A stretch of 64,000 bases of DNA from a virus (IMGVR_UViG_2924810865_000002:1799-65798); one strand, 5' to 3'; counted from the first letter of the stretch, positions 1-51,490 are shown. Notes: a model not told the origin generated them from the sequence alone. Translations and numbers: made by a program.

Positions 1-1530
1 GTTTTGAGCTTCTGTTAATTCCAATTTAGGGAGTTTTACTTGCATTGCAGAAGTATCGAATAAATATCCTAAACCGACGGCATTAGACGCAGAATTAAAT
101 AATGACAAAAAGGACGATAATCCTTGAGCAAGATAATTTAAACCACGCTCGATAATTGAAATAAGCGAATTGATAGCAGATTTACCAATTGCTGAGAAGG
201 CATTCGGTAAATCCCCCCAAATAATTGAAATGGCATTGTAACCAGCAACAAATAAACCAATTATTGCATTTGTGCGTTGTTGCCAAGCCTCTACAATGAG
301 ATGAGCTACACTAATAACAGCCGAAAGAGCACTTTCCCAAAAGCCCGAAGTTTGTTTTGTTGCATCGTCCCAATAAGAAATAACCGCTTTAGCCGCATTA
401 CTCATCAATGAGGTAAAATCTTGCCAAACACCTGTTGCCACATCACCCCACGTGGTACCAATTTCAGAAGCCCCAAAGGTCATATCTGATAAAAAGGCAT
501 CAAAAGCGAAAGCGGCAGCAGTAATTGCAACCGTAAGTGCACCAAGAGGATTAGAAAGAACTGCCACCGTTGCACCACGAATTGCAGTAGTTAATCCTAC
601 AAAACCTGTTTTCAGTAGCCCCAAAGCATTGATACCTTGCGTCATATTCGCTAATTTTGATGTAGCAACCCAAGAGAGATAAGCAACTATCGTATAACCT
701 ATTGATTTTGCCAATACATCAAAATGCTGTGCCAGAAAACTAACTGACTGTGCTAAGGCACTCATTACCCCACTGCTATTTAAGCCATCAACAAATTTCA
801 GCCACGCATTTTCCATTTGCTGCATTGCCTGCCCGAAGGTCATGGGCATTTCGTCAAACTTCGCGGAAATTTTACCGCTTGCACCGCTGATTGCTTCAAA
901 TAAAACTTTAGAGGTAATTTTCCCATCAGAAGCTAATTTCTTTACTTCTGCACGGGTTTTGCCCATATATCCCGCCACCACATCTAAAATAATCGGGGCA
1001 TTTTCTGCAATAGAGCGGAATTCATCGCCTTGCAACACGCCAGAACCTAATGCCTGTGAAAGTTGCAATAATGCCGATTTTTGACTTTTGGCATTCACAC
1101 CGCCCACTGCCATTGCTTTATTTAGTGTTTCGGTGAACTTGAGCGTTTGATTCGTGGTAACGCCCATTTCCGCTAATGCCCGTTTTGTACTCACAAAGGC
1201 TTGCGTGGTCGCTTCAAGGCTTGCGGTGGTGCGTTGACTAATCTCAAATAACGCCTTTTCTGCGTGAGTGTAATCAGTCATCCCGCTCGTCACTTGCTTG
1301 AGCTGACTGTGTAGCGATTGCATTTTATCAGCAGCATCTAATACCTGTTTTCCCAAGCTCGCTAAACCACCAATCGCCAAAAGTTTTTGCATTCGGTTTA
1401 GTTGTGTTTCCACTGCGGCAACTGCCTGTTCCGCTTTGCTAGATTGACGGGCGAGATGGCTTAAATCATTGCCTGCGGTTCTTGCCCCGTTTGCGGTTAC
1501 ATTGACCGAAAGTGTTGCTGTAGTAACCAT
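1..1530 (-). CDS. Phage tail tape measure protein, N-terminal part (runs off the window start)
   Basis: Manual translation from ATG at 1530: MVTTATLSVNVTANGA...LLQLSQALGSGVLQGDEFRSIAENAP, the tape-measure domain signature. Absent from the ORF track because no stop lies in the window. Confidence 0.9.
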   Translation of the reverse strand, partial: MVTTATLSVNVTANGARTAGNDLSHLARQSSKAEQAVAAVETQLNRMQKLLAIGGLASLGKQVLDAADKMQSLHSQLKQVTSGMTDYTHAEKALFEISQRTTASLEATTQAFVSTKRALAEMGVTTNQTLKFTETLNKAMAVGGVNAKSQKSALLQLSQALGSGVLQGDEFRSIAENAPIILDVVAGYMGKTRAEVKKLASDGKITSKVLFEAISGASGKISAKFDEMPMTFGQAMQQMENAWLKFVDGLNSSGVMSALAQSVSFLAQHFDVLAKSIGYTIVAYLSWVATSKLANMTQGINALGLLKTGFVGLTTAIRGATVAVLSNPLGALTVAITAAAFAFDAFLSDMTFGASEIGTTWGDVATGVWQDFTSLMSNAAKAVISYWDDATKQTSGFWESALSAVISVAHLIVEAWQQRTNAIIGLFVAGYNAISIIWGDLPNAFSAIGKSAINSLISIIERGLNYLAQGLSSFLSLFNSASNAVGLGYLFDTSAMQVKLPKLELTEAQN

Positions 1531-1540
1531 ATTCCCTCAC

Positions 1541-1576
1541 AAATAAAAACCCCGAAGTGCTTGTCACGCTTCGGGG
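1541..1576 (-). terminator. Rho-independent terminator upstream of the tape measure gene
   Basis: CCCCGAAG...CTTCGGGG hairpin followed by a T-run on the minus strand. Confidence 0.6.
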
Positions 1577-1582
1577 AGTACC

Positions 1583-1876
1583 TTACACCTCAATCATTCC
1601 TTGCTCTTTCATATAGCTGTAAATTCGGTTGAGCATTAAATCTTGGAACGATTTGCCAATATCACCCTGTGTGAGAGGGGCGAACATAATGGCGTGTGTT
1701 TGTGTGCTATCTAGGTATTTGTATTCCGTTACAAGCGGTCGAAATTCAGTGATTTGTTCCGCCTCTTCCGTACCTGTGCCGATAGCGTAAGTCACGTTCA
1801 TTGAACCGTCTGAATTCATGGTAAAACCAGAGATGGTTGAATAGACTGGGTTTAAGATTTTGTTGAATGTTGCCAT
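1583..1876 (-). CDS. Phage tail-region hypothetical protein (97 aa)
   Basis: ORF with AGGAG RBS, same strand as the tail genes. Confidence 0.75.
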   Translation of the reverse strand: MATFNKILNPVYSTISGFTMNSDGSMNVTYAIGTGTEEAEQITEFRPLVTEYKYLDSTQTHAIMFAPLTQGDIGKSFQDLMLNRIYSYMKEQGMIEV

Positions 1877-1892
1877 AAAGGACTCCTTGCTG

Positions 1893-1920
1893 TTGATAAA
1901 ATCCCAAATTGGGATATAAT
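1893..1920 (+). promoter_or_regulatory. higBA promoter with palindromic operator
   Basis: TTGATA-16-TATAAT with TCCCA-AAT-TGGGA (1902-1914) in the spacer. Confidence 0.7.
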
Positions 1921-1947
1921 AAAAGAAAGGTTATAAAAGGAAACACA

Positions 1948-2250
1948 ATGCGGATTATTTCAATCTCTACCCTTGTTGCTTATTGGGAAAAACACCCTGA
2001 TGCAGAACAACCACTAAAAGCGTGGATTGCAGAAGTAAAAAAGGCGAATTGGCAAAATGCCCACGAAATTAAGGCACAGTATAAATCCGCTAGTATTTTA
2101 AAAAATCGTCGCGTTGTGTTTAATATAAAAGGCAATGATCATCGTTTAGTCGTTGCTATTGCCTTTCAGTTTGGGGCGGTTTACGTCAAGTTTATCGGTA
2201 CACATACCGAATATGATCGTATTAACGCCAATGATGTTGAATTAAATTAG
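1948..2250 (+). CDS. higB: HigB toxin (RelE superfamily, E. coli HigB type)
   Basis: MRIISISTL...RVVFNIKGNDHRLVVAI...FIGTHTEYDRI; ATG at 1948 follows an AAGG RBS. Confidence 0.9.
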   Translation: MRIISISTLVAYWEKHPDAEQPLKAWIAEVKKANWQNAHEIKAQYKSASILKNRRVVFNIKGNDHRLVVAIAFQFGAVYVKFIGTHTEYDRINANDVELN

Positions 2251-2259
2251 AGGTTTGCT

Positions 2260-2619
2260 ATGTATCAAATTAAGCCTATTCGTAATGAGCAGGACTATCA
2301 AGCTGCATTGAAAATCGTTGAGCCGTTCTTTGATAAAGAGACCTTTTCTTCTGATGAAGCTGATTTTTTCGATGTAATGCTTACGCTGATTGAGAACTAC
2401 GAAGCAAAACATTATCCTGTCGACCTGCCCGACCCGATTGAGGCGATTAAGTTCCGAATGGAACAGGAAGGGCTAGCGATTAAAGACTTAGATACTATTA
2501 TCGGTAAGCCCAATCGTGTCTATGAAGTCTTTAATCGTACCCGTCCATTAACGCTCAATATGATCCGAAAAATCCATAAACAAATGGGAATTAGTGCAGA
2601 TGTGTTGATTCGAGTTTAA
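2260..2619 (+). CDS. higA: HigA antitoxin (HTH)
   Basis: IKPIRNEQDY...PDPIEAIKFRMEQ...RPLTLNMIRKIHK, directly downstream of the toxin. Confidence 0.9.
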   Translation: MYQIKPIRNEQDYQAALKIVEPFFDKETFSSDEADFFDVMLTLIENYEAKHYPVDLPDPIEAIKFRMEQEGLAIKDLDTIIGKPNRVYEVFNRTRPLTLNMIRKIHKQMGISADVLIRV

Positions 2620-2665
2620 GCTTATCTATTAAACAAGTGCGGAATTGATCGCACTTTGTTTATAG

Positions 2666-3349
2666 TTATCTTAAAACAATATAAGTTCCTCTTTTTTTCA
2701 CTGTCTCCTCATCTGCAATAGATGGGGCTTTAATAGATAATATAGGCGTATCTAACTGATAATATGACGGCTCTGTATTTCCTGTCATCATTTCAGCTCT
2801 AACTAACCCACCTTGTGCATCTGAAGCATAAAATTTTCGAATATTTCCAGCTAAAGCATAACTTGATGATAAATATAATCGATTATTACCCACATTTCCT
2901 ATTTTGAAATCCTCAGCATAAGAAAACTCACCATTTGATCCCTGAATATAAATAATTTCATTATTTGAATTTCTTATAGATATACCATATCCAGTCTCAA
3001 CCATTGTTTTTAATGGGTGATAAAAATAAAGTTTAAAATTAAAAAATGGACTTCCTTTAAATTGAAGGAATTTATCAATTCCAGAACGAGCTACAAGTTC
3101 AAAATTCATACCTTGAACTTCTATTCCATAATTCTTATCAATATATTGTGAACCATTAAACTTTAAAAAAACCAAACATCTTTGATTATCATTAATAAAT
3201 TTATTTAATTTACTATACATTTCTACTGAAGAAATAGATTTATATCCATTTTTAGCAGTAACTAAGTTAATATCAAATATAGTCGATAAAAAAAGACATG
3301 GCATTTCTTGTGTAGATAAATTGCCAATTTGAACACCATAATTACTCAT
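2666..3349 (-). CDS. AT-rich tail-tip-associated hypothetical protein
   Basis: 227 aa with two YG(V/I)xI motifs (NYGVQI, GYGISI), like the small genes that follow J in many lambdoid phages. Confidence 0.55.
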   Translation of the reverse strand: MSNYGVQIGNLSTQEMPCLFLSTIFDINLVTAKNGYKSISSVEMYSKLNKFINDNQRCLVFLKFNGSQYIDKNYGIEVQGMNFELVARSGIDKFLQFKGSPFFNFKLYFYHPLKTMVETGYGISIRNSNNEIIYIQGSNGEFSYAEDFKIGNVGNNRLYLSSSYALAGNIRKFYASDAQGGLVRAEMMTGNTEPSYYQLDTPILSIKAPSIADEETVKKRGTYIVLR

Positions 3350-3803
3350 ATATCACCACCATAAATTCAGTACCTGCTCCATCATTAATGTTTGAGGTAA
3401 TAATATCAAAGTATGTTTCAGAAATTTTATCTAGGGAAAATAGAATGGCATCCCTATCAATTTTATGATAAAACCTAAATACCTTTGGTGAATATGTATA
3501 AGCATAAGTTGGCATATCTTCAAGCATTCTTACAATAATTTGATATTTTTTACCTTGAATTTTATAAGGCATTTGGATACGTTTACTTTTTTGAGAATTA
3601 CTTAAACTTACCTGACCTTGAAATAAAAAACGCACTTTATTAGATAAATTAAGTGGCTCTAAGTTACCTGAATTAGAACGAATATTAAAACCATAATTCA
3701 CATTCTCCTCCTTAGCCTTAACGCTTTTCTTAGTTTTTAGCCAATAAAAAAGCAGTCCTAAGACTGCTAACAAAATCACTACAATTAAAAGTGCAACTAT
3801 CAT
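3342..3803 (-). CDS. AT-rich hypothetical protein with N-terminal membrane anchor
   Basis: MIVALLIVVILLAVLGLLFYWL then KTKK; NYGFNI motif; overlaps the next ORF. Confidence 0.6.
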   Translation of the reverse strand: MIVALLIVVILLAVLGLLFYWLKTKKSVKAKEENVNYGFNIRSNSGNLEPLNLSNKVRFLFQGQVSLSNSQKSKRIQMPYKIQGKKYQIIVRMLEDMPTYAYTYSPKVFRFYHKIDRDAILFSLDKISETYFDIITSNINDGAGTEFMVVIYE

Positions 3804-3881
3804 ATTTTTCTCCTTTATTGTATCGAGTCACTTTACAAACCACTTTTAAGATGTATACTCACTCTATACAAAGAGGCTAAA

Positions 3882-4160
3882 ATGATTCTATCGTTTAAAC
3901 ACAAAGGGCTTGAGCTCTTTTTTACCACAGGTTCTATTGCAGGTATTCAAGCCAAGCACGCAACGAAATTAAGATTGCAGCTGGATGCTCTCAATCGTGC
4001 AACTTGCCCGCAAGATATGAACGCACCCAGTTGGCGATTGCATCCATTAAAAGGTAATCTTAAAGAGCATTGGTCGATTACCGTAAATGGAAACTGGCGA
4101 ATTACCTTTAAATTTGAAAATGGACACGCTGAAATCGTTGATTATCAAGATTACCACTAG
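3882..4160 (+). CDS. higB: HigB toxin (plasmid maintenance killer type)
   Basis: MILSFKHKGLELFF...LHPLKGNLKEHWSITVNGNWRITFKFENGHAEIVDYQDYH. Confidence 0.92.
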   Translation: MILSFKHKGLELFFTTGSIAGIQAKHATKLRLQLDALNRATCPQDMNAPSWRLHPLKGNLKEHWSITVNGNWRITFKFENGHAEIVDYQDYH

Positions 4161-4168
4161 GAGTTATT

Positions 4169-4441
4169 ATGAAAATGTACAATCCACCGCATCCAGGTTT
4201 AGTGTTAAGAGCATATATTGAGGGAATGAAAATTGGTGAAGTTGCCCAAAAATTAGGGGTTTCCCGTATTTCACTCTCTCGCATTCTTAACGGTAAAACT
4301 GCCATTACGCCAGAAATGGCAGCACGTATTGGGCTTGCGTTAAATAACAGCCCTAGTATGTGGCTTGGTATGCAGGCTGATTATGATTTATGGCAAATTG
4401 AACAAAATCAAACTTTTCATATCACGCCTATTTACTCCTAA
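4169..4441 (+). CDS. higA: HigA antitoxin (VapI type)
   Basis: MYNPPHPG...AITPEMAARIG...WLGMQADYDLW. Confidence 0.92.
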   Translation: MKMYNPPHPGLVLRAYIEGMKIGEVAQKLGVSRISLSRILNGKTAITPEMAARIGLALNNSPSMWLGMQADYDLWQIEQNQTFHITPIYS

Positions 4442-7182
4442 AGCTGCCCAATTTTTACCCGTACATTTCCTCGCTCGTCATACACAATAATCTGGTTATT
4501 GTTGATGACGAGTCCTACATTTCCTGCCGCTGCACGCATTTCTACTTGCCCTTGATTGCTCACTTTAAAGCGGTTGTTGATATTCAACGAACCACCTGTG
4601 ATATTACCCAAATCCGCACTAATCGCCGATAAGCTTTCCACATTCAACTCTTTCGCCGTAATAGACTTACTCACAATATGATTTGCAGTGATGGTCTTGC
4701 CTGCAATATGTTTCCCCGCAATCGTGCCACCAACAATCTCATTGCCTGTAATTGTCCCTGCCGCAATTTGCTGAGCGGTAATCGAATTGGTCACAATCGA
4801 GCCACCGTGAATTGAGGTTACACCTGCATTTTGCCACGAGCTAGGTTCTTTAGTAAATTCAGTACATTCTTCAAGCATAGGGCGTAAAACAAAAGCCCAC
4901 GGATTAACTCCACCGTTAACACTATTCATCTGAATAGCAAAACGAATATGTCCTGTGTCAGGAGCAGTGAATTTGACCCACACTCTACGGTATTTACTAA
5001 AATCTCGGTTGACTGCATTAGCTTGACTTTCTGTTACCCAGTCAGTACCACCAATCCAACTAATATAAGCACTGCTATCTTTAGCTAATTCTTCAATGGA
5101 AATTTTAACCTTACCTCTATGTACCGCTAAATAACAGCTCGCCATATAGGTTTTTCCTGCAATTACTCGTACATCTTGATTAAACCACCCGATACGTTCA
5201 TCAACATTTCGAGTATTGTTTATTTGCCGTGTAAATGACGCTGTATTTTCGTTGTCTAAACCACCTAATAAAGACCAATCATCAGTACCACCTGCTTTAC
5301 GATATAGGAATCCTCCATAACTACCATTAAATGTTGGACTATCTCCGACCCAATACGACCACCCGTGAGGTAAATCTCCGCCCGTGTTATCTTTACCTGC
5401 TGTTGCAAAAATCGGATTAGTGAGCAAATTCCCCCCAAGCCCAATCGCCAGTTTATCCGCTGAAATCTCCCCTGCAACAAAATGATCTGCTCGGATTGCA
5501 CCCGCAGAGAGTTTCGGCCCAGTAATTTGCCCATTAGCAATTAAATCACCGTTAAGTGCTATCTGATCGTTGACTACCGATAACATGGGTTTTGGCGACC
5601 CATCTTGTGCGTTTTTGACCACTTGGAACTTATCCGCCATCACAATCACTGAACTTTGCTCTTTATTTGCACCAAGAGAAATCCCTGCAATCGCGGTATG
5701 GTTACCTGAAATAGTTTGAGTTTTAATCGTATGGGTTGCGGTCAATTGACCTTTGACATCCGCTACAACTTTGCTCACAGTAGAGATTTGATCCGTTGCA
5801 CCATTCACTGAAGCAGTGATTTTCTTCAGCTCATCCGCTTGAGCTTTATTCTCATTTGCTCGGGCAGTTTGTTCTGCAGTAATCTTGGCACCTAAATCCT
5901 CTTTCGCACTGTTTAAGTTCGCTTCCAACTGGCTAAACTTGGTAGTAGCGGTGCTATTGAGCGTACTAATCGATCTCTCAGCATGGGCAATTTTCCCTTC
6001 TGCTCCATCAACACGGGTGGTTAACGCCGTGAGCTTCCCTGCTTGAGCTTTATTCTCATTTGCTTGAGAAGTGGCTAATTGCTGAATGGTTGCCTCTGCA
6101 CTTCCCATACGAGAGTTAGATTCGTTTTCCCACGCTATCCTCGTATTCGATTCATTTGTAAGCGATCGCTTAATGTCTTCAAACTGGATAGTTGTCGTCA
6201 AATCTTCTGGGGCTGGGCTCCAGTCAGTTGCAACATTACCAATCTCTAATTTGGGATACGTGGCAACACAAGTTCCTCCGCCCACTTCAACCTTAAATGA
6301 GCAGTGTGAAATACTTTTAATCGGCTTATCGAGTAATTGAACTGTTGATTTTAATCTACCTTGATAATCCCCCTGATGGTTGCTTAACCAACACTCAATC
6401 CACGTATACGTATTATCGGTGTAGTACAAAAACATAGATAAACCGACACGATTACGCCCGCCCCTGATAATGCCTTTCGCGTTAAGACTAAAAGAAAGCG
6501 TGAGTTTTTTACCTTGCCAGCTTTCTTTTGCAGATTGTGACACTGTCCACGATGTTCTATTTTCCGCTGAATGAAGCAGATAGTTACGAGCACCTACATC
6601 AAAGTTAATATTATTAAATTCAGACGACAGCTCTGCGACTTTACGTTTAGCCTCTTGAGATTGTGCTACGACTTGTGTCGCAGAATCTTGTGCTGTGGTG
6701 AGTTGGTTAATTAATGCATGATCAAGTTGATTTTGACTTAATTGACCCGCTATTTCAGAGGCTTGTATTTTTGATGTGTACTGACTGCCATCCCAGCGAT
6801 ACAACTTGCCGTCTCTTTCATTGTAAACCTGTTTTACTCCTTGGAACTGGTTTACATTAAGGTTCGCTACGGTTTTCACCATCTCCAACTTCCGTGCTGG
6901 AGCTGCAGTATCAAACACTTCGTTGATGATGTTTTGGCTGAGCTTTTCATTCAGCAGTTTCAGCTCTTTATCAATATCTACCGAACTTTCGCCCCGCACG
7001 CCCGCTTGTTGATAAAACGCCCCCACATTTTGCCCACGCACGTGTCTAAGCCAGTAATAACGCACCTGTTTTGCACCGACTTCATGGCTGTACATTTTAG
7101 CGTTGAGTTTAACCAAACGATGTGCGGTTTGAATCTCATCACGTTCACTCACCATTTGACCGCTTGCATTTTTAATTTTCAA
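4438..7182 (-). pseudogene. Host-specificity tail tip protein J, 5'-truncated
   Basis: YSHEVGAKQVRYYWLRHVRG near the start, DUF1983-like IAGISLGA...VIVMADKF, and terminal VYDERGNVRVKIGQL. The N-terminal several hundred residues expected after gene I are absent; the TTG start lies in non-J sequence. Confidence 0.8.
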
Positions 7183-7207
7183 GTAATTCTTCAGTTTTAT
7201 TTCTGCC

Positions 7208-7242
7208 TTGTTACTTATAATCCGTTGTTTTATAACCTACAA
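7208..7242 (+). promoter_or_regulatory. C-box operator for a restriction-modification controller protein
   Basis: TTGTTACTTATAATCCGTTGTTTTATAACCTACAA aligns over 35 bp with the recalled C.Esp1396I operator ATGTGACTTATAGTCCGTGTGATTATAGTCAACAT. Confidence 0.75.
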
Positions 7243-7278
7243 AAAGGATAATCAGCAAAAATTTTGGGAGATTCTTTT

Positions 7279-7485
7279 ATGATTTTGGAACAGATAGGCA
7301 GCCGAGTGCGTGAGTTACGGAAAGCCCAAGACTTAAGCCAAGAAAAATTTGCATTGAAAGCTGAAATTGACCGTACTTACCTTGCAGGAATTGAGCAAGG
7401 CAAACGAAATCCATCTATTAAGAGCTTAGAGAAAATCATTAATACGCTTGGTGTAACTTTTCATCAATTTTTTGAAGGAATGTAA
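7279..7485 (+). CDS. Controller (C) protein, XRE HTH
   Basis: IGSRVRELRKAQDLSQEKFALKAEIDRTYLAGIEQGKRNPSIKSLEKI, preceded by the C-box. Confidence 0.88.
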   Translation: MILEQIGSRVRELRKAQDLSQEKFALKAEIDRTYLAGIEQGKRNPSIKSLEKIINTLGVTFHQFFEGM

Positions 7486-7530
7486 TTGTTGATTATAAGT
7501 AACAAAAATACTATAATTTAGGAGCTAAAA

Positions 7531-8418
7531 ATGGCACATTTTGGAGAAGCCGAAAGAAGTATTCAGCAGTATTTTGTGGTTGGTGAGTACGTTGAGTTCA
7601 ATTCGCAGAATTACATTATCAAGAAATCAGGAAAGCCTACTTGTAAGAACGGTGAGCCGAAAACAGATATTTATATTTTGCTTGCTAATGAGCAGTCTGG
7701 TGAAGTTGAAATCAAAATTTCATACAAGAAAGAAAATGCAGATTTCTTGGAAAACAAAATCAAGGCTGAACGTGCAGAACAATTATTTGGAAGTAAATGG
7801 TATTCTTTAATTGAACAATCTACATCAAAAATCAAAGATAAATTCTTTGCCAAACCCCTGATTTATAAAAACAAGAACAAAAGAACTGAAAAAGGGGCGA
7901 TAACATTAGGCTGGAAATTTGAGCTAATGAATAAATTAAGTGGAGAATTATCGGGTGAAATGCTGTTAAACAAAGAACAATATCTTGATGTCTATGCAGG
8001 GAATAATTTACCACCTGATAAGCGAAATTCATTTGTAAACGGTGAGAAAATCGATAATTCAGGCGTGGCAAATTATATTTTGATTGGTAATCAGTTTTCA
8101 TCAGCTCAGGCTATTCTAGCTAAAATAGAACACGTTGAAGATTATGTCACTCATTGTCCAAAAATCTATTTTGCCTGCAAAGCATTGAATTACCGAACTT
8201 TTGCGAGTAAATATGATGGCGATAGACCGCTCGCAGTTCAAGTAAAATGGGGTCATCAAAATGGAAAATTAAGTCCAACTTTGACGTTTAATCAGCCTTT
8301 ACAGATAAATGGCAAAGAAGTTAAAGAGCAATTGTTGACTTGTTTAAAAACATTAGAAATTGAAACAACAGATGATATTAATGAAAACAATGCAGAAATG
8401 TCTTGCGTTCATCAATGA
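7531..8418 (+). CDS. Putative type II restriction endonuclease, PD-(D/E)xK fold
   Basis: PKTDIYILL...EIKISYK motif; lies between the C gene and the C5 methyltransferase. Confidence 0.7.
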   Translation: MAHFGEAERSIQQYFVVGEYVEFNSQNYIIKKSGKPTCKNGEPKTDIYILLANEQSGEVEIKISYKKENADFLENKIKAERAEQLFGSKWYSLIEQSTSKIKDKFFAKPLIYKNKNKRTEKGAITLGWKFELMNKLSGELSGEMLLNKEQYLDVYAGNNLPPDKRNSFVNGEKIDNSGVANYILIGNQFSSAQAILAKIEHVEDYVTHCPKIYFACKALNYRTFASKYDGDRPLAVQVKWGHQNGKLSPTLTFNQPLQINGKEVKEQLLTCLKTLEIETTDDINENNAEMSCVHQ

Positions 8419-8427
8419 AAGGAAAAA

Positions 8428-9498
8428 ATGAAAGTTATTAGTTTATTTTGTGGATGTGGTGGCTTAGATTTAGGTTTTGAAAAAGCAGGTTTTGAAGTCC
8501 CAGTGGCGAATGAATATGATAAAACCATTTGGGCAACATTTAAGGCTAATCATCCTAAAACTCAATTGATTGAGGGCGATATTCGCAACATTAAAGAAGA
8601 AGATTTTCCAGACGAAATTGATGGAATAATCGGTGGGCCACCATGCCAGTCTTGGTCTGAAGCGGGAAGTCTGCGTGGTATTGATGATGCTCGCGGGCAA
8701 CTTTTTTTTGACTATATCCGCATTTTAAAAAGTAAACAACCAAAGTTCTTTTTAGCTGAAAATGTCAGTGGAATGCTTGCTAATCGCCATTCGGAAGCAG
8801 TACAAAATTTGCTGAAAATGTTTGATGAGTGTGGCTATGACGTAACCTTGACTATGGTTAATGCGAAAGATTATGGCGTAGCACAAGAACGTAAGCGTGT
8901 ATTTTACATTGGATTTAGAAAAGATCTAAAAATTGATTTTCAATTTCCAAAAGGTTCAACTATTGATGATGAAAAGAAAATTTCATTGAAAGATATTATT
9001 TGGGATTTAAAAGATAGTGCTGTTCCAGCATTAGAACGAAATCAGACGAATCCGCAAGCGGTCAATAATAACGAATATTTTACAGGTAGCTTTTCTCCAA
9101 TTTTTATGAGTCGAAATCGAGTGAAAGCGTGGCATGAACAAGCTTTTACTGTTCAAGCATCGGGACGACAATGCCAATTACACCCACAAGCTCCGAAAAT
9201 GGAAAAGCATGGAACAAACGATTACCGTTTTGTAGCGGGAAAAGAAAATTTATATCGTAGAATGACAATTCGTGAAGTCGCTCGAGTACAAGGTTTTCCT
9301 GATGATTTTAAATTTATTTACAAGAATACAAATGACGCCTACAAAATGATTGGTAATGCTGTGCCTGTAAATTTGGCGTATGAAATTGCAGTTGGAATTA
9401 AAAAGGCATTAGAAACGCTAAAAGAAAAGCCAATTGATTTGCCTCCTAATTTAGTGCAGTCTAAACCTAAGGTAGCTCATCAGCTTTCTATGTTCTAA
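8428..9498 (+). CDS. DNA cytosine-5 methyltransferase, probably GGCC-specific
   Basis: Motifs [29 protein letters not shown]; target-recognition region FMSRNRV...[16 protein letters not shown] matches recalled M.HaeIII/M.NgoPII. Confidence 0.93.
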
Positions 9499-9526
9499 AA
9501 ATGTTGCTTGAAGAAATCTTACCAAT

Positions 9527-9670
9527 AATCACGTGATTTTTAATATTAAAGGCAATCATTACCGCCTTGTCGTTAAGGTGCATTACGTCAATGGCATTGT
9601 AAAAATCGAATGGGTTGGCACATTGAATACGATTAAACAGCAATTTTAGGAATGGTTATGACACAAATTC
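9527..9670 (+). pseudogene. HigB 3' fragment plus first codons of higA
   Basis: Degenerate copy of 11657-11810 (VIFNIKGNHYRLVVKV...ATGACACAAATT). Confidence 0.8.
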
Positions 9671-9688
9671 TCTTATTTTTCCTTATTT

Positions 9689-9862
9689 ATGCCCGACCCA
9701 GAGCACTCTTTTGATGAAGAACGCTTTTTAGTGCTCGGATTGAGTGAAAAAAATCGAACTTTAGTGGTTGTTCATTGTGTACGTGATCAAAATATTCGCA
9801 TTATTTCAGCCAGACGAGCAACGTTACGAGAGACAAAACAATATCAGGAGCAAATACGATGA
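9689..9862 (+). pseudogene. brnT: BrnT toxin, C-terminal half only
   Basis: PDPEHSFDEERFLVLGLS...IRIISARRAT; N-terminus missing. Confidence 0.8.
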
Positions 9863-10074
9863 AAGAAGAATATGATTTCAGCCACGCGGTGCGTAATCCT
9901 TATGCCGCAAAACTTAAAGCGAAAAAGGTTATCACGATTCGCCTTGATGACGAGTCTGTCGATTATTTCAAATCACTCTCCGCCGAAATAGGGATTCCTT
10001 ATCAAACGCTTATTAACTCTTACCTCAAAGATTGTGCGATCAACCATCGTAGACCCAACTTAAACTGGGCGTAA
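9859..10074 (+). CDS. brnA: BrnA-family antitoxin (orphaned)
   Basis: MKEEYDFS...ITIRLD...GIPYQTLINSYL; ATGA overlap with the brnT fragment. Confidence 0.8.
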   Translation: MKEEYDFSHAVRNPYAAKLKAKKVITIRLDDESVDYFKSLSAEIGIPYQTLINSYLKDCAINHRRPNLNWA

Positions 10075-10112
10075 AATAACCCGAAGTATGAGAATGCTTC
10101 GGGTTATTTTTT
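10073..10112. terminator. Bidirectional terminator between brnA and gene I
   Basis: AAAATAACCCGAAG...CTTCGGGTTATTTT. Confidence 0.7.
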
Positions 10113-10697
10113 CTCTTCCACCACATCAAAGGTCTCAATCCCTTGCGAGATAATCAACGCCCCCACCAAAATTCGCCCGTAAGCCAGTGGCATGGCTTGC
10201 CCTTGTGCGACCCGATTTTGTAGCCCGCTGAATGCCGTCGAAGATTTTTTCTCTTGCTCGTTGAAACTCCCCATACTCGGCGTTTTAGTCAGCATTTGTG
10301 CCACACCACCAAGCAGCATCGACGCCCCCATTCCGCCTAACATCATTGCCGTTTGTGAAGCGATAATCCCCCCCACAGGACCGAGTAACACTGCCGCACC
10401 AATCAAAGCAATACCCGCAATCACGCCAAATACGCCACCACGCTTCGCCCCTTTTAACACTGGAGTAAAATGCACCGTCATTCCCGCTCTCAAGCGGTAA
10501 TGCAAGCCTTTTTCCAAGTATCGATTATCTAAATATTGCGAACCAATACGGACTTTATACATCCCTTGTTGCATCATATGACGCAGTCCTTCTAGTTGGC
10601 TCATCAAGGCTTTTAACACCTCTGCCACCGTTTGGCAATCTAGCTGAAAATCCGTGCCAAAACGCTTGAGTGAGCCGTAAAATTTAATCTTGATCAT
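10104..10697 (-). CDS. Tail assembly protein I
   Basis: MIKIKFYGSLKRFG...NRVAQGQAMPLAYGRILVG, lambda gpI pattern. Confidence 0.9.
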   Translation of the reverse strand: MIKIKFYGSLKRFGTDFQLDCQTVAEVLKALMSQLEGLRHMMQQGMYKVRIGSQYLDNRYLEKGLHYRLRAGMTVHFTPVLKGAKRGGVFGVIAGIALIGAAVLLGPVGGIIASQTAMMLGGMGASMLLGGVAQMLTKTPSMGSFNEQEKKSSTAFSGLQNRVAQGQAMPLAYGRILVGALIISQGIETFDVVEEKK

Positions 10698-10706
10698 AGT
10701 GATGTC

Positions 10707-11441
10707 CTATAAAGTAGAAAGCGGAATGGAAAAATCCAACTGCTCGGCATTGTGGTGTCGCCAAATCGAGTGCGTATGTTTGAGCCAGTAGCCATCATAT
10801 AAATCTCGCTTGCTAAGTCGTTTTGGGCTGTGGTGCAATACTTGCTGTTCGCCTAAGTAAATGCCTGCGTGATTCGGCACGTTCGCCCCTACCTGCATCA
10901 AAATCACATCGCCAATTTGCAAAGTTTCCTGAAAATCTAACCGCTTGAATCCCTGCCCTTCGAGATTATCTAAGTAAAGATTTTGCCCGTTGTGCCACCA
11001 CTCATCGGGGCGATTGAACTCGTCCATATCTAAACCCGCTAAAAAGTAGAAATCTTTAAACAACGTGTAGCAATCGGTTTTGCCGTGCTCAAAGGTTCTG
11101 CCAACAAGCGGGGCAATTTTCGGGAAACGTTGCAATTTACCCTCACAGACTAAAAGCCAATCGCAATCGGTGTGGGCGAACATCTGACGGTCAGCAAGCG
11201 ATAACACAGGTTCGCCATTCGGGTGTGAATGAACAATCGCCTCAATCCACCCCAATTTTTCCGCCTCGATTTGTTCTTCTGGAGCAATCTCAAAATAGTT
11301 TTCAGGATCTTGTGCTACATTGTGGCAAGGATAATAAAACCGTTCGCCCGCCATATGGTCTCGCAAAATAAAACCGCAACATTCGTGCGGTTCTGTGGAT
11401 TTGGCGTAGTCAATAATTTGTTGTTCAATAGATTCTTTCAT
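10707..11441 (-). CDS. Tail assembly protein K (JAB plus NlpC/P60)
   Basis: EAIVHSHP, DCYTL, NHAGIYLG...LHH. Confidence 0.92.
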   Translation of the reverse strand: MKESIEQQIIDYAKSTEPHECCGFILRDHMAGERFYYPCHNVAQDPENYFEIAPEEQIEAEKLGWIEAIVHSHPNGEPVLSLADRQMFAHTDCDWLLVCEGKLQRFPKIAPLVGRTFEHGKTDCYTLFKDFYFLAGLDMDEFNRPDEWWHNGQNLYLDNLEGQGFKRLDFQETLQIGDVILMQVGANVPNHAGIYLGEQQVLHHSPKRLSKRDLYDGYWLKHTHSIWRHHNAEQLDFSIPLSTL

Positions 11442-11448
11442 TTTATTT

Positions 11449-11474
11449 TCCCATTTTGGGAAATTATGTTATAA
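11449..11474 (+). promoter_or_regulatory. higBA promoter/operator
   Basis: TCCCA-TTT-TGGGA (11449-11461) upstream of TATAAT. Confidence 0.6.
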
Positions 11475-11502
11475 TTTCACCAAATAAAGAGAGGATAACA
11501 AG

Positions 11503-11787
11503 ATGCTTGTTGTGGGAATTGATAAACTCGTTGCTTTTAGCCAAAAACACGCCAATGCCGAAAAGGCATTGAAAACGTGGCTTAAAAGTGTGGAATTGTC
11601 TCAATGGAAAACACCGCAAGATATTAAAAATAGCTATCGCAGTGCGGATTTTCTTGCCGACAATCGAGTTATTTTCAACATTAAAGGCAATCATTATCGC
11701 CTTGTCGTTAAGGTGCGCTATGTCAATGGCATTGTCAAAATCGAATGGATTGGCACGCACGCAGAATATGACAAGCAACAATTTTAA
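11503..11787 (+). CDS. higB: HigB toxin
   Basis: WKTPQDIKNSYRSADFLADNRVIFNIKGNHYRLVV...WIGTHAEYDK. Confidence 0.9.
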   Translation: MLVVGIDKLVAFSQKHANAEKALKTWLKSVELSQWKTPQDIKNSYRSADFLADNRVIFNIKGNHYRLVVKVRYVNGIVKIEWIGTHAEYDKQQF

Positions 11788-11796
11788 GGAGGCGTT

Positions 11797-12162
11797 ATGA
11801 CACAAATTCGCTTAATTACCAACGAAGAAGATTATCAACAAGCCCTTACCCGCTTAGATACGCTAATGGATTTAGACCCACCTGAAGAAAGCGAAGCGGC
11901 ACTAGAGCTTGAAGCCTTGGCGTTGTTGATTCAATCCTACGAAAAAAAATATTATGCATTCCCAACCGATGATGTGAGTGTGCTGGATATGATCCAGTTC
12001 AGAATGGAACAAAACAACTTAACCACCAAAGATATGACGGCTTATTTAGGCTCACCTTCTAAAGTCTCTGAGGTGTTAAGTGGCAAGCGTCCATTAAGCC
12101 TGACGATGATCAAGAAACTTTATCACGGCTTAGGTATCCCAGCACAGTTGTTGTTAGCCTAA
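11797..12162 (+). CDS. higA: HigA antitoxin
   Basis: ITNEEDYQQAL...IQFRMEQ...SKVSEVLSGKRPLSLTMIKKLYHGLGIPA. Confidence 0.9.
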   Translation: MTQIRLITNEEDYQQALTRLDTLMDLDPPEESEAALELEALALLIQSYEKKYYAFPTDDVSVLDMIQFRMEQNNLTTKDMTAYLGSPSKVSEVLSGKRPLSLTMIKKLYHGLGIPAQLLLA

Positions 12163-12867
12163 TTTATTCACCCCAATAAACCCACCATAATTGAGGGTGT
12201 TATGACGTAGCTGACAACCCCGCAAGCACCCTGAGCATTTGTCTTTTTTCGGGTCGGTGGTCGGTTGGTCTTTTTCATCTGCAACAGGTCTGCCCGTATA
12301 ACCGCATTCTGTTGAGCGATACACCCACGGGCACGTGACTAAAATCGTTCGCTTGTTAATCACGGCATTATCGGTTTCCGTCGGCAACGCCAGCGTAAAG
12401 GTCGCCATATCTTGCGTGAGCGTGGTTAATTGCTCAATCAGGTAATAACTCACTCGCTCTTGCTGTGGATCGGCATTGCGATTACCCGCTTTAAAGTTTG
12501 CGGCATCTAAAAACTGGGCATACACTTGCCGTCTGCGGACAATCGCACCTAAGCATTGCTCGAAGTTGTTCGAGAGGGCGGTCACAAAGCCATCAAAATT
12601 GATGACCGTGAGCGTGGGTCGATTGCTTGCCCCCTGCCCTGACATTTCAAAGCCTTCTGCCTTGACCCCAAAGGGCGTATAGCCGTTACCTTGCCAAATA
12701 ATCGGCTGGGTAAGTTCATTCGTGCCCGCATAAAAACGGAACAGCTCACCACGATTGCCGTCTTTGCCCGTAAGCTGTCGCATATCGACCTCAAACAAGT
12801 CAAGCAACGCCGTTTGTTCGAGCTTTGCCAGTTCAAGCTGAAATGTTGGAGTGATATTTGCGGTCAT
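12154..12867 (-). CDS. Minor tail protein L
   Basis: C-terminal Cys motif CPWVYRSTECGY...CSGCLRGC...YGGF. Confidence 0.92.
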   Translation of the reverse strand: MTANITPTFQLELAKLEQTALLDLFEVDMRQLTGKDGNRGELFRFYAGTNELTQPIIWQGNGYTPFGVKAEGFEMSGQGASNRPTLTVINFDGFVTALSNNFEQCLGAIVRRRQVYAQFLDAANFKAGNRNADPQQERVSYYLIEQLTTLTQDMATFTLALPTETDNAVINKRTILVTCPWVYRSTECGYTGRPVADEKDQPTTDPKKDKCSGCLRGCQLRHNTLNYGGFIGVNKLG

Positions 12868-13193
12868 GAAACGACCTCCTCAAACTCGCCAGTCAATTGC
12901 CCATAGGCTTGCTGATAAATGACTTGATGCTCTTTACATCTGTATTTGCCTTGCTTGCCGAAAGGGGGCGTCCAGAGGAAGGTTTTATAACCGCCGTGGC
13001 GAGTGAGGAAATCATCAATCTGCTTGATCTTGGCAATATTGCCGCTAAAAGTCAGGCTAAATGTCGCTCGATTATGGTTCAACCCTTGCGGGCGAGATTG
13101 GGTATAGCCATCACCAAAATCAACTTCACTCAATTTCGGGCTTTGCTTTTTACTCGCTTGATAATCAGGACTAAAATTTAAGGTTTCCATCAA
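12864..13193 (-). CDS. Minor tail protein M
   Basis: VDFGDGYTQSRPQGLN...FLTRHGGYKTFLWTPP. Confidence 0.92.
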   Translation of the reverse strand: MMETLNFSPDYQASKKQSPKLSEVDFGDGYTQSRPQGLNHNRATFSLTFSGNIAKIKQIDDFLTRHGGYKTFLWTPPFGKQGKYRCKEHQVIYQQAYGQLTGEFEEVVS

Positions 13194-13522
13194 TGCTCCA
13201 TTTGCGTGTTGAGATAAATTAAATCCAATTGTTTAATCACATCAATTTCCCAACTGTCGAGCTTCATTTTATAGAGCCTGCCCCACGCCTCTATTTCCGT
13301 AAAAGTCAGCGGGTTCAAGCTCATTCCGCACTGCCTTGCCGTGGAAAGTTGTTGGAAATAACCCAATAAATAAGCCACCGCATCATTCGGTGGCTCATTG
13401 TCAAGCTCGACGGGCATTTCGCCTGTCTGCTCATACAGCGAGAGTAAATGTGCCCGCAAGGTCGCTTTACTCTCTTTGGGGTGTTTATCCAGCTCAAACT
13501 CTTTTTTTGCGTAACGCAGCAA
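13190..13522 (-). CDS. Tail assembly chaperone T segment (expressed as a GT frameshift fusion)
   Basis: NPLTFTEIEAWGRL...WEIDVIKQLD; the -1 frame is open from the slippery site in G. Confidence 0.8.
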   Translation of the reverse strand: MLRYAKKEFELDKHPKESKATLRAHLLSLYEQTGEMPVELDNEPPNDAVAYLLGYFQQLSTARQCGMSLNPLTFTEIEAWGRLYKMKLDSWEIDVIKQLDLIYLNTQMEH

Positions 13523-13530: not shown

Positions 13531-13932
13531 TTAAGCCGTCAAGAACTTTCCCAAATCGTTGGAATGTTCCAGAATTTGGTCAATCATCCAATCGCATTCA
13601 CTCAATACCATACGGGCATTTTCTTCGCTAAAGGCAAGCGGTTTACCTTCCCATTCTAAACCGTCCCAATTCTCTAAGCGGCTTAAGGCAAGCTCTAAGG
13701 TTTCTGTGCGTAATTCATCTAAGCCTTTTAATTGAGGCTTGCGACTTTTGGCATTTTCAATTTCACGCAACTGCTCTTTTTTCAGTTTTTTCTGCAAGTA
13801 AGCAAATGCCTTGTCTGATTTTGCCGACACCACACTGATTTTTACCCCCAATTCATCACTCGTTTCAGGATGAAGCAAGTTAAAGGTAAAGGTTTCTGCT
13901 AAAGCTGATTTTGATAAGTTTTTTAAGTCCAT
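13531..13932 (-). CDS. Tail assembly chaperone G
   Basis: Follows the major tail gene; ends with G-GGA-AAG slippery heptamer. Confidence 0.82.
   Translation of the reverse strand: MDLKNLSKSALAETFTFNLLHPETSDELGVKISVVSAKSDKAFAYLQKKLKKEQLREIENAKSRKPQLKGLDELRTETLELALSRLENWDGLEWEGKPLAFSEENARMVLSECDWMIDQILEHSNDLGKFLTA
13546..13552 (-). other. Programmed -1 frameshift site GGGAAAG
   Basis: Same heptamer as lambda gpG/GT, in X XXY YYZ phase. Confidence 0.85.
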
Positions 13933-15824: not shown

Positions 15825-16223
15825 TTATGCTCCTAATTCATAGGCAGTGAAAGAAATTGTGATCGGCAACGCAAGGCTATTGCCTGATAAAAAAAGCCCA
15901 CCGATTTGCGGTGGGTGATGAATAATCAGCTGAATGTGGGATTCAACCACACTCAAGCCGTAGAAATGTTGGCGTAGCTGACTCGCTCTCTGCTCAATCG
16001 CTTTTGTGCCTTGCCCGTTGTCAAAAAATAAGGTGAGCTGTAAAAAGCCCGTTTCTGTCGCAAGCGGTTTATCGGAAATCGTACTGGTCTTTGCTGTATT
16101 GACCGTTAAATAGACCGCTTGATAAGGCAGTTTATGCTCTGTTTTCACCCCTTCCCAAGCGGTCGGAAAAGTATCCAATTTTGCTAAATGACTTTCTAAA
16201 ATGCGTCGAATTTGCGGTTTCAT
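15825..16223 (-). CDS. Tail terminator-like protein (DUF4128 type)
   Basis: Position, size and GFLQLTLFFDNGQG motif. Confidence 0.65.
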   Translation of the reverse strand: MKPQIRRILESHLAKLDTFPTAWEGVKTEHKLPYQAVYLTVNTAKTSTISDKPLATETGFLQLTLFFDNGQGTKAIEQRASQLRQHFYGLSVVESHIQLIIHHPPQIGGLFLSGNSLALPITISFTAYELGA

Positions 16224-16231
16224 TGCCTACC

Positions 16232-16630
16232 TCATAGATGTGAATGTTGAGCATAATACGCATTGATTTCATCCACGGAAATGCGAATCATCCCTTGAGG
16301 GGCTTGCACAGAATAACCACGTCGTATCTTCCCTGTTTTAGAAGGACTAGGATATAAGCCATATTCCAGCATCGGGGCATAAGGTTTGTCCGTCGCAATC
16401 ACTATCGTATCGGACAACCGAGCCTGAGCAATGGCGATTTGACTGCCATCGTAATTGCTCGGTACAGCATTCAAAGCAACCGTCCACGAACGTCGCAACG
16501 CGCCACTATCAACAGGGGTTTTCTTCTGTACCTTGTTGAGGGTATCTAACGCAATTTTGCGAAAGCCTTGTGTTTGAGCCAATAATGCGGAATCCACAAA
16601 GCCATCAATGGTGGCACTAAATCTACCCAT
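16232..16630 (-). CDS. HK97 gp10-like tail completion protein
   Basis: TPVDSGALRRSW...PYAPMLEYG...QAPQGM. Confidence 0.85.
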   Translation of the reverse strand: MGRFSATIDGFVDSALLAQTQGFRKIALDTLNKVQKKTPVDSGALRRSWTVALNAVPSNYDGSQIAIAQARLSDTIVIATDKPYAPMLEYGLYPSPSKTGKIRRGYSVQAPQGMIRISVDEINAYYAQHSHL

Positions 16631-16982
16631 AACGTCTTCCTTGTGCTTGATAATAAATCGCTTGTTGTGCAGGACGAATCGGCTGCACCCGAATCACTTG
16701 CCACTTTTCGCCATTGACCGACACAATGTCGTTCACATCAGCTTTTTCAGTGAGTAACATCAACACATCGCCCACTTGAACATCGGCATGAGTGGTCTGA
16801 CGGCTAAAATCATAGGCAAGCGTATCAAATAAACAGGATGCCGACACACTGCGTTTTAATTGGCTGACCTCGCCCGTTTCGGGGTTATATTTGCCCGTTT
16901 TTACTTGTGAAATCACACAAGGGCTGCCAAACTGGCGAATAAGCTTGGTCGATACTTGCTGTAAGTTTTGATAAAGTTGCAT
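16623..16982 (-). CDS. Head closure / head-tail connector protein
   Basis: LIRQFG...GKYNPETG, position in the neck cluster. Confidence 0.65.
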   Translation of the reverse strand: MQLYQNLQQVSTKLIRQFGSPCVISQVKTGKYNPETGEVSQLKRSVSASCLFDTLAYDFSRQTTHADVQVGDVLMLLTEKADVNDIVSVNGEKWQVIRVQPIRPAQQAIYYQAQGRRYG

Positions 16983-17419
16983 TAGCCACGCTCCAATTTC
17001 ACCACGCCAAAGCTACTGCGATCTAACCAAGCGACTAACAGTTGTCGCACATAATCAAAGCGGTTACTGCTATCGGCAATCGTTGAACGGTTGTCATAAT
17101 TGACCGATAAACTGCCGACTTTCACGCTGGTCATCTTCTGCTCTGCGTTTTGGTTGAGATTTTCTTGTAATGCCAGTTCACATACGGCATAGATAATAGC
17201 GGTAGGGATTTTTAACGATTCAAATCCTTTACGCGGAAATTGGCGTAGCTGCATTGGGTCGGCTTTTTCGCCCATAAAGCGATAATTCACATCTAAGAAA
17301 TCTGACGCACTCACCAAGCGGCGAGCCTTTTCCTCTTCGTCTAACGCGGCCCACGCCGCTTTGCTCATTCGCAAATTGTGATACGCATTGGCTTCTTCTA
17401 CGGAAAGATAAGCGGTCAT
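16982..17419 (-). CDS. Head-tail adaptor (DnaT-like family)
   Basis: AYLSVEEANAYH...LVSASDFLD...QLRQFPR...SVKVGSLSVNY. Confidence 0.75.
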   Translation of the reverse strand: MTAYLSVEEANAYHNLRMSKAAWAALDEEEKARRLVSASDFLDVNYRFMGEKADPMQLRQFPRKGFESLKIPTAIIYAVCELALQENLNQNAEQKMTSVKVGSLSVNYDNRSTIADSSNRFDYVRQLLVAWLDRSSFGVVKLERG

Positions 17420-28142: not shown

Positions 28143-28448
28143 ATGATTAACCTAACCGCCTCGCACTTTCGTGATGATTATCTCTACCGCTTTTACCAAT
28201 TTGGCGAAAGCCACAGTAAAATTCCTGCGAACCTAACCAATGTGCTTGCTCGCAAATTGGATATGATCAACGCAGCCGAAAACATCAACGATTTACGAAT
28301 GCCACCAGCTAACCACCTTGAACTACTCGAACCGAAAGAGAATAAAATCTATTCCATTCGAGTGAATAAACAGTACCGCCTGATTTTCAAATTTGAAAAC
28401 GGCACACTGTCCGATTTATTTTTAGATCCTCATACATACGCACTATAA
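28143..28448 (+). CDS. higB: HigB toxin
   Basis: LARKLDMINAA...DLRMPPANHLELL...YSIRVNKQYRLIFKF; promoter TTGCAT-17-TAAGAT at 28085-28113. Confidence 0.9.
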   Translation: MINLTASHFRDDYLYRFYQFGESHSKIPANLTNVLARKLDMINAAENINDLRMPPANHLELLEPKENKIYSIRVNKQYRLIFKFENGTLSDLFLDPHTYAL

Positions 28449-28457
28449 GGACGAACA

Positions 28458-34927: not shown

Positions 34928-34953
34928 AAGCGTTAAATCTAGTCTATCTTTCT

Positions 34954-35010: not shown

Positions 35011-35012
35011 TT

Positions 35013-51413: not shown

Positions 51414-51490
51414 ACCGCCCTCGTAGCGGTTTTCTTTTGCTTGCAATAATACAAAGTAAGAGTATAATGCAAAGCATAAGGATAAAACCA

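Follow-up and report, generated by a model that had tools for sequence, protein, structure and literature searches.

Predicted toxin-antitoxin pairs on the antisense strand at tail-gene junctions of a probable lambda-like Haemophilus prophage

Genes and signals at the locus

The viral sequence IMGVR_UViG_2924810865_000002 is recorded in IMG/VR as a 65.8 kb 'provirus', and the window analyzed here, a stretch of 64,000 nucleotides, comprises bases 1799-65798 of that record. Between positions 1893 and 12162 of the window, genes on the minus strand, mostly tail genes, are interspersed with small operons on the plus strand. Among the latter, three toxin-antitoxin (TA) pairs of the HigBA family, named TA1 (1948-2619), TA2 (3882-4441) and TA4 (11503-12162), are the subject of this work, together with a type II restriction-modification (R-M) operon and the remains of further TA genes. 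A preceding examination of this DNA, made by inspection of the bases only and called here the sequence-only reading, had described three intact HigBA pairs on the strand opposite to the tail genes, and this description is borne out.

The tail genes around the pairs are M (12864-13193; Phage_min_tail, 1.4e-32), L (12154-12867; Phage_tail_L, 5e-74), K (10707-11441; NLPC_P60 and Prok-JAB) and I (10104-10697; Lambda_tail_I), all of them intact and the last two with full-length matches in relatives, followed by what is left of J, the gene for the central tail fibre, 914 codons truncated at the 5' end (4438-7182). Further on lies p97 (1583-1876; phrog_14212, 7.5e-31), a small conserved gene of 97 codons, also on the minus strand, which in relatives is found 3' of J, adjoining either J or cargo, and is not a recognized tail gene. 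At 96-98% identity, the L protein matches prophage genes from genomes of Haemophilus parahaemolyticus and H. paraphrohaemolyticus, and no megablast match to window 1-12900 was found among GenBank phages. M, L, K and I, with what remains of J, probably form the distal part of the tail module in a lambda-like prophage belonging to the Haemophilus parahaemolyticus group, an assignment which is part of the overall interpretation given below. The genes of the window were mapped onto 100 related loci, designated by L numbers and reduced to 49 non-redundant ones.

In all three pairs the toxin gene comes first. TA1 is of the Escherichia coli K-12 (YgjN) type: HigB1 (1948-2250; 100 aa, with its ATG at 1948) covers positions 1-74 of the 74 of PF09907 (6.3e-33) and aligns over its whole length with PDB 5IFG_A/5YCL_B (1.7e-6), and HigA1 (2260-2619; 119 aa), which starts 9 nt after HigB1 and has a putative C-terminal helix-turn-helix (HTH), aligns over residues 7-115 with the E. 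coli HigA of PDB 5IFG_B (3.6e-4). TA4 is a paralogue of the same type, in which HigB4 (11503-11787; 94 aa) covers positions 1-73 of the same profile (1.5e-30) and is 44% identical to HigB1, and HigA4 (11797-12162; 121 aa) was typed from its 40% identity to HigA1. The HTH_3 match of antitoxins of the K-12 type is weak and under the cut-off, and NCBIfam gave no match for either partner of this type. TA2 is instead of the Rts1/Proteus vulgaris type. HigB2 (3882-4160; 92 aa) covers positions 2-91 of the 91 of PF05015 (2.9e-22) and aligns end to end, over residues 1-92, with the P. vulgaris HigB of PDB 4MCT_B (1.8e-25); in this alignment it keeps LHPLKG and the C-terminal DYH, which we take to be the equivalents, in position and role, of His54 and of Asp90-Tyr91-His92 of the P. 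vulgaris toxin. Its partner HigA2 (4169-4441; 90 aa) matches TIGR02607 (1.7e-26; 91.9 bits against a cut-off of 47.7) and HTH_3 (1.7e-9).

A Shine-Dalgarno motif precedes every one of the six genes, and the ratio of nonsynonymous to synonymous substitution (dN/dS) between copies is 0.05-0.20 for the TA genes overall and 0.05-0.18 for those of TA1 and TA4 (0.05 for HigB1 and 0.12 for HigA1), with 0.08 for HigB2. Since these values indicate purifying selection on toxins as well as antitoxins, they argue for active modules. It could be supposed that the pairs are inactive remnants or chance open reading frames (ORFs), given that the prophage is decaying, that a neighbouring slot holds TA relics and that the HigB2 copy of L016, a locus from a metagenome-assembled genome (MAG), is split. 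This is very improbable in view of the selection just described, of the Shine-Dalgarno motifs, of promoters and operators that are intact, and of matches that, for all six proteins, extend over the whole of the profile or PDB homologue.

The sequence-only reading had also attributed to each intact pair its own promoter-like sequence, and in fact the best plus-strand matches lie 20-30 nt upstream of HigB1, HigB2 and HigB4. A scan of the plus strand between 1400 and 13000 returned 39 promoter-like sites against 30.6 +/- 6.4 in shuffled sequence, that is, no excess, and it is only the placement of the best matches that is informative. The site of TA1 is TTGATA-16-TATAAT (1893-1920; 11/12, element 1893-1923), and an inverted repeat with TCCCAAATTGGGA at its centre, likely the HigA operator, overlaps it. 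The site of TA2 is TTTACA-16-TATACT (3832-3859; 10/12), with 20-nt inverted arms at the flanks of the element (3818-3871). In TA4, the site TTCCCA-16-TATAAT has a TG forming an extended -10 (11448-11475; 10/12) and is overlapped by the palindrome TTTCCCATTTTGGGAAA, in an element (11444-11485) that begins 7 nt from the start codon of K. Inverted repeats at the promoter are the usual layout of autoregulated type II modules. A further site among the highest-scoring matches precedes the restriction enzyme gene (7489-7517, plus strand). Terminator-like hairpins were found only after TA1, on the plus strand downstream of HigA1 (2635-2656), and after the antitoxin gene BrnA described below, where a hairpin reading in both directions is common to BrnA and I (10073-10110); there is none after TA2 or TA4.

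The same examination had the stop codons of the pairs abutting or overlapping the ends of tail genes. This holds for HigA4, whose stop overlaps that of L by 9 nt, the last three codons of the two genes overlapping on opposite strands, and for HigA2, whose stop overlaps that of J by 4 nt; BrnA and I have their terminator in common, and HigA1 ends 46 nt from the next gene.

The junction between I and J (7183-10103) had been taken as a slot of TA relics. The relics are real, in the form of a HigB stump and a cut BrnT, but most of the slot is an intact type II operon of controller, restriction and modification genes (C-R-M), and BrnA is intact. The operon, on the plus strand, comprises a C protein of 68 aa (7279-7485; HTH_3, 5e-16), a type II restriction endonuclease of 295 aa (7531-8418; PADLOC REase_II, 3.1e-55) and a C5 cytosine DNA methyltransferase of 356 aa (8428-9498; PF00145, 6e-106; PADLOC MTase_II, 2e-125). 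The motif GTTACTTATAA precedes C (at 7210) and recurs in inverted form ahead of R (at 7493), although the motif count by itself is not significant; endonuclease, methyltransferase and a small HTH controller in one operon with a repeated operator make up a type II R-M system with controller. Downstream on the same strand, a relic of a K-12-type HigBA (9517-9678) consists of the 3' third of the toxin and the first ~8 antitoxin codons, is 81% identical to the part of TA4 at 11652-11817, and is joined directly to codon ~40 of BrnT. What remains of BrnT are its C-terminal 57 aa (9689-9862; PF04365, positions 33-77 of 77), followed by BrnA (9859-10074; PF14384). The toxin is not of full length here, its first ~40 codons and promoter being replaced in comparison with L004, a type-strain relative in which BrnTA is complete, with a BrnT of 96 aa, and has the same right-hand border as in the window.

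The damage at this junction extends to J, which is ~1280-1650 codons long in the relatives L005, L006, L007 and L029 and whose remnant in the window matches Phage_Tail_Tip and phrog_31 at C-terminal positions only. For the N-terminal ~730 aa of the relatives' J no counterpart was found anywhere in the window. The arrival of the R-M operon coincides with the loss of these ~730 codons (2.2 kb). The I/J slot thus reads as an insertion-deletion scar and J as a 5'-truncated stump. The sequence-only reading had placed the cassettes at four intergenic positions within the tail operon; the I/J slot is not a clean position of this kind, as no part of the window contains J codons 1 to ~730, which relatives have. 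The MAG locus L016 (13405-16976) has the same C-R-M insertion and J-truncation junction as window 7183-9498, with a J remnant that is only 55% identical in its C-terminal part and with split R and M genes. This would mean either that the insertion was followed by a swap of the receptor-binding end, or that the junction has passed from one prophage to another.

The J/p97 junction is also more complex than had been thought. TA1 and TA2 had been placed between consecutive tail genes, and they are found instead on the two sides of an orphan gene pair (2666-3803) of 28% GC that lies on the minus strand, in sense with the tail genes. It consists of a gene for 153 aa (3342-3803), with an N-terminal hydrophobic segment read from the DNA, and an overlapping gene for 227 aa (2666-3349). 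For neither did Pfam, PHROG, NCBIfam or PADLOC give a match. For the 227 aa protein, a full HMMER search of a library of 1.8 billion proteins yielded only 14 representatives and a word-index search four near-identical proteins, and the Atlas led to hypothetical clusters only; its AlphaFold model (pLDDT 66.6) found no fold match in the PDB and, in BFVD, only weak matches to uncharacterized phage proteins. The pair represents moron cargo rather than tail genes. Other, unrelated sense pairs occupy the same place in relatives, several of them starting with a similar M-x-(N)-Y-G N-terminus.

Occupancy and orientation of the junctions in related prophages

The association of TA pairs with tail-gene boundaries, on which the sequence-only reading depended, could be examined in the relatives, and the positions are not random: the same four junctions, L/K, K/I, I/J and J/p97, recur as cargo slots across lambda-like prophages of Pasteurellaceae and Neisseriaceae, and are empty or hold other cargo elsewhere. 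When extra DNA is used as the criterion, relatives with empty L/K, K/I and I/J junctions and with a short J/p97 junction are all found.

The L/K junction is empty in most loci, and in L006, L007, L016, L028 and L029 a precise empty site is preserved, consisting of the L stop, 4 nt and the K start. It is occupied by HigBA4 in the window, L005 and L031, by HicAB in L011 and L036, and elsewhere by lipoprotein or unknown genes. At the occupied site the last codons of L are synonymously recoded and overlap the stop of HigA4. The K/I junction is empty in the window and holds Gp49/HTH pairs in L004, L005, L016 and L029 and ParE/HTH pairs in Alysiella and Simonsiella prophages. At I/J, L004 has BrnTA, and a prophage of Neisseria has a ParE/HTH pair. 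At J/p97, HigBA1 is found in L005 and L029 and a HigBA2 with 78%/58% identity in Rodentibacter; L006 has a Gp49/HTH pair there with a lipoprotein resembling factor-H-binding protein, and many other loci have sets of genes on the sense strand. The lipoprotein of L006, from H. paraphrohaemolyticus (15912-17368), is antisense, has FHBP_C and TbpB beta-barrel domains, stands beside the Gp49/HTH pair, itself antisense, and is possibly a host-interaction moron.

Backbones that are 96-98% identical have from 0 to 3 TA cassettes in differing combinations of slots. L005 combines a J that appears to be complete with three pairs, each in a slot of its own. In more distant relatives (Providencia, Pseudomonas) the slots are empty.

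Orientation was tallied over all non-redundant ORFs of at least 50 aa inside the distal slots. Matches to toxin families were found for 13 of the 63 antisense ORFs and for none of the 61 sense ORFs (Fisher p=1.2e-4), a p-value that is optimistic since the relatives are phylogenetically non-independent. The antisense toxins are ParE (3) and HigB_toxin, HigB-like, BrnT, Gp49 and HicA (2 each), accompanied by HicB, BrnA and nine HTH_3 proteins, and the sense ORFs of the slots matched only DUF4376, KilA-N and T5orf172. PADLOC found nothing for p97 or for the sense cargo of relatives.

Such an orientation could in principle serve a coupling with the late operon, in which convergent transcription from the TA promoters holds down the leaky expression of tail genes in a lysogen. 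In a variant based on collision, late transcription upon induction or superinfection would run into the TA promoters, the labile antitoxin would be depleted and HigB would become a late shut-off or a trigger of abortive infection. The strictness of the antisense placement in the distal slots would suit it, as would the TA2 and TA4 pairs, which lack a terminator and reach into J and L at their 3' ends, and the short distance from the TA4 promoter/operator to the start codon of K. This evidence is purely positional, however, and the insulation from late transcription that is set out in the last section accounts for the orientation equally well. Furthermore, bidirectional terminators stand on either side of the cassettes of Mannheimia phage 587AP2 and of the BrnTA unit, an arrangement that speaks against a need for read-through, and coupling would have no current role in a defective prophage. 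In either variant, we regard it as quite improbable.

Composition and possible spread of the cargo, and decay of the prophage

The cargo differs in base composition from the genes around it, with a GC content of 0.38-0.40 in the TA cassettes, 0.35 in the R-M operon and 0.28 in the orphan pair, against 0.45-0.50 in L, K and I. In five close host genomes HigB of the PF09907 family is found solely inside this prophage, and the family is present in 29 of 201 sampled genomes of Pasteurellaceae species. Because tail-gene neighbours (within ~1.5 kb) were detected at only 5 of the 30 PF09907 HigB loci retrieved, 3 of these being close relatives, HigBA of this type would be a general TA unit of Pasteurellaceae that has been captured by the phage slots. 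At loci L112-L127, compared with window 1948-2619, HigA1-like antitoxins of 60-76% identity adjoin toxins 42-55% identical to HigB4, a contrast that suggests either a faster evolution of the toxin or a shuffling of partners. One sampled Pasteurellaceae genome, G035, has 20 PF09907 HigB matches ~7.87 kb apart on several contigs (e.g., L118 and L139), a spacing which points to a tandemly repeated or concatenated element.

With regard to the spread of the cassettes, the K gene of the window is 95% identical to that of L005, which has the cassette in common with it, against 87-90% to those of relatives with the empty site, and its first codons differ from the empty-site allele. No convincing direct repeats or target duplications were seen at the cassette borders, which were inspected by eye only. 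The differences in the flanks would fit an exchange by homologous recombination through the conserved tail genes.

The prophage is defective: both J and the capsid gene are cut short, and core genes of the host lie inside the record. The major capsid ORF (17750-18463) covers 235 of 313 profile positions, and holA, lptE, leuS, an exonuclease I-like gene, a ClC channel gene and an Asn/Lys-type tRNA synthetase gene are found at 33878-43106. Close relatives are also damaged: L004 ends after codon 88 of J, and L029 has frameshifts in K and J. The lineage would nevertheless have been that of a working phage until recently, because dN/dS between copies is 0.06-0.21 for the backbone genes L, K, I, M, p97 and a displaced tape measure gene (0.07 for p97, 0.07 for I, and 0.19 or 0.13 for K, in comparison with L007 or L005, respectively).

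The sequence-only reading had gone further and had seen in the pairs a regularly spaced, distributed design in which any deletion of a tail segment would remove an antitoxin. In such an anti-deletion array, pairs placed at several junctions would free their toxin upon loss of the segment and kill the deletant, the deletions arising, for instance, by transformation-mediated 'chromosomal curing' in naturally competent hosts, in a manner similar to that of a superintegron; both concepts, of integron TA cassettes (PMC13108822) and of chromosomal curing (PMC4774983, PMC12637031), have been published. The pairs are in fact divergent enough to make cross-neutralization unlikely, HigB1 and HigB4 being 44% identical, HigA1 and HigA4 40%, and TA2 belonging to another family; L005, too, has its three pairs in three slots and an apparently complete J. 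Pasteurellaceae and Neisseriaceae, the families whose prophages use the slots, are naturally transformable, and the slots are empty in Providencia and Pseudomonas. The window, moreover, contains 12 uptake signal sequences of the Apl type, ACAAGCGGT, against 0.39 expected (e.g., at 1731, 13970, 15037 and 15059). Two of the Hin type, against 0.38 expected, are also present, and none of either lies inside a TA or R-M cassette. On the other side, the cassette centres are ~1.9, 5.6 and 2.1 kb apart, a spacing that is irregular, and near-identical backbones that hold 0-3 cassettes in varying slots show no fixed pattern and do not fit a distributed design. The claimed penalty on deletion failed at I/J, where two TA pairs were wrecked and 2.2 kb of J were lost, hence this junction was not protected. 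The prophages with several TA pairs all belong to one clade, and no excess over independent gains was seen. The array is therefore an unlikely explanation, and so is its weaker form, in which several pairs that do not cross-react would make curing by recombination more costly in naturally competent hosts, although such a partial effect would be compatible with the failed protection at I/J.

Other features of the window touch the cargo less directly. A second PF05015 HigB with an HTH partner lies at 28143-28787, antisense to its neighbours, and further TA pairs are found at 51437-52160 (RelE-like/MqsA-like) and 52300-52888 (Gp49/HI1420-type). Upstream of M, on the minus strand, are the tail genes T (13190-13522) and G (13531-13932). 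The tape measure gene is not between T and M, which abut in the window (12864-13522) and in eight related assemblies; an intact one is found instead downstream of J, between p97 and a gene of 126 codons (window 1-1876; L003:1-3328), which are neighbours without it in other relatives. This gene, on the minus strand, has 981 codons, and it starts within the window and runs off the left edge. From its dN/dS of 0.21, the displaced gene is probably functional. That it belongs to a second, tandem prophage or is due to misassembly was considered and rejected, given the T/M adjacency in eight assemblies and the order of p97 and the tape measure gene in three. In the relative L049 (1870-6148), M precedes the tape measure gene.

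Interpretation and relation to known systems

We propose, with a probability of roughly 70%, that these operons are self-promoted addiction or defence morons that accumulated at permissive junctions between tail genes, and that their antisense placement insulates them from late transcription. Gene junctions would act as insertion slots for foreign cargo. Three slots would each have received a complete type II HigBA module, in two cases of the K-12 type and in the third of the Rts1/Proteus type, with a putative sigma-70 promoter and palindromic operator, and the fourth a controller-regulated type II R-M system layered over the wreckage of a further HigBA and of a BrnTA, in insertion or deletion events that may have removed the 5' 2.2 kb of J. 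The HigBA modules would be expressed from the repressed prophage as addiction cargo, anti-phage cargo, or both. Lying antisense, they would have a toxin-antitoxin stoichiometry free from the antiterminated late transcript, and, in the lysogen, no transcription would run from their constitutive promoter into the tail genes; cargo in the sense orientation may simply ride the late transcript. The cassettes may spread between prophages by homologous recombination via the conserved flanking tail genes, and their density would reflect accretion in a decaying prophage in which addiction modules outlive structural genes.

Besides the non-independence of the relatives mentioned above, two observations weigh against this proposal. 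Upstream of the tape measure gene two sense TA units are found (in L011/L048/L053 and in L035), beside antisense HicAB, HigBA and MazF units, so that the antisense rule, as read from the aligned loci, is strict for the distal slots only and looser upstream of that gene. A count by hand of cassette/slot combinations gave 15 antisense against 2 sense (binomial p = 0.002, likewise optimistic given the non-independence of the relatives). Furthermore, the picture of purely insulated units is weakened because transcription of TA2 and TA4, with no terminator behind them, would run on into J and L from their 3' ends.

A more far-reaching possibility, which we consider doubtful, is that lambda-like phages of Pasteurellaceae and Neisseriaceae have evolved their tail junctions as docking slots open to TA cassettes in antisense only, the non-cross-reacting pairs forming a device against curing, lethal to cells that have lost prophage segments through recombination, or releasing their toxin when triggered by late transcription. 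If this were true, orientation and multiplicity would be a selected trait of the phage and not the outcome of accretion. Under the accretion of morons that we favour, the locus illustrates how addiction and defence cargo may colonize a late operon and outlive the phage, the structural genes being broken and the TA and R-M units intact and constrained. The result on slots and orientation is perhaps useful for the annotation of prophages and for the mining of defence hotspots, and it suggests a testable rule on the orientation that TA units need in order to coexist with antiterminated late transcription.

The element is of a kind already known, and no new mechanism is revealed. In particular, hicAB has been described in the late operon of the inducible lambda-like Mannheimia haemolytica phages 535AP2, 3927AP1 and 587AP2, and a stabilization of the prophage was suggested (Niu et al., 2015; PMC4553209). 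In the annotation of KP137435 hicAB is antisense, with its own promoter and flanking terminators. Those phages and the present prophage have in common a Pasteurellaceae lambda-like siphophage backbone and a type II pair, with its own annotated or predicted promoter, on the strand opposite to the tail genes. In Mannheimia, however, there is a single HicAB cassette, between the genes for the major tail protein and for the chaperone and tape measure proteins, in phages that are induced as virions, whereas here three HigBA pairs, an R-M operon and relics are all found in the distal M-L-K-I-J region of a defective prophage. It can be added that in 587AP2 (L107; KP137435, 8968-10162) the annotation as minor tail protein L is given to two genes in a row (156 and 238 aa).

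The definition of morons goes back to the tail operon of HK97 (gene 15), and their predicted cargo, in Burkholderia phages for instance, includes TA pairs and restriction enzymes (PMC3594210). Like HK97 gene 15, lambda lom and bor and the morons of Burkholderia phages, the cargo of the window consists of extra units between genes that are adjacent in relatives, has a deviant GC content, and lies inside a late operon; it also has promoter-like sites of its own. The orientation of the cargo is not discussed in that review (PMC3594210); here the TA pairs are antisense and occupy up to four junctions at once. With the HigBA systems of Rts1/P. vulgaris (PDB 4MCT) and of E. coli K-12 (YgjN/YgjM; PDB 5IFG) the present pairs have in common the toxin-first order and full-length matches, but the similarity to the K-12 pair is low (1.7e-6 and 3.6e-4), and these pairs, known from sequence, lie within a phage tail operon.

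Two other systems resemble the locus in its arrangement. The superintegron of Vibrio cholerae (PMC13108822) also has several self-promoted TA units among the genes of a mobile array, and these have been proposed to penalize the loss of segments; it differs in its integrase/attC chemistry and in having experimental support, whereas no recombination sites were identified here and deletion took place despite the TA pairs. P2-like phages and P4-like satellites likewise have hotspots, at fixed backbone positions, for variable defence cargo (PMC9122126); the phage family and the positions are others, and the cargo here is dominated by small TA pairs. In comparison with these systems, what the locus adds is density, in that two wrecks stand beside three intact pairs and an R-M operon within 10 kb, and what the alignment with its relatives adds is four recurrent slots and a strict antisense placement of TA pairs in the distal tail module.

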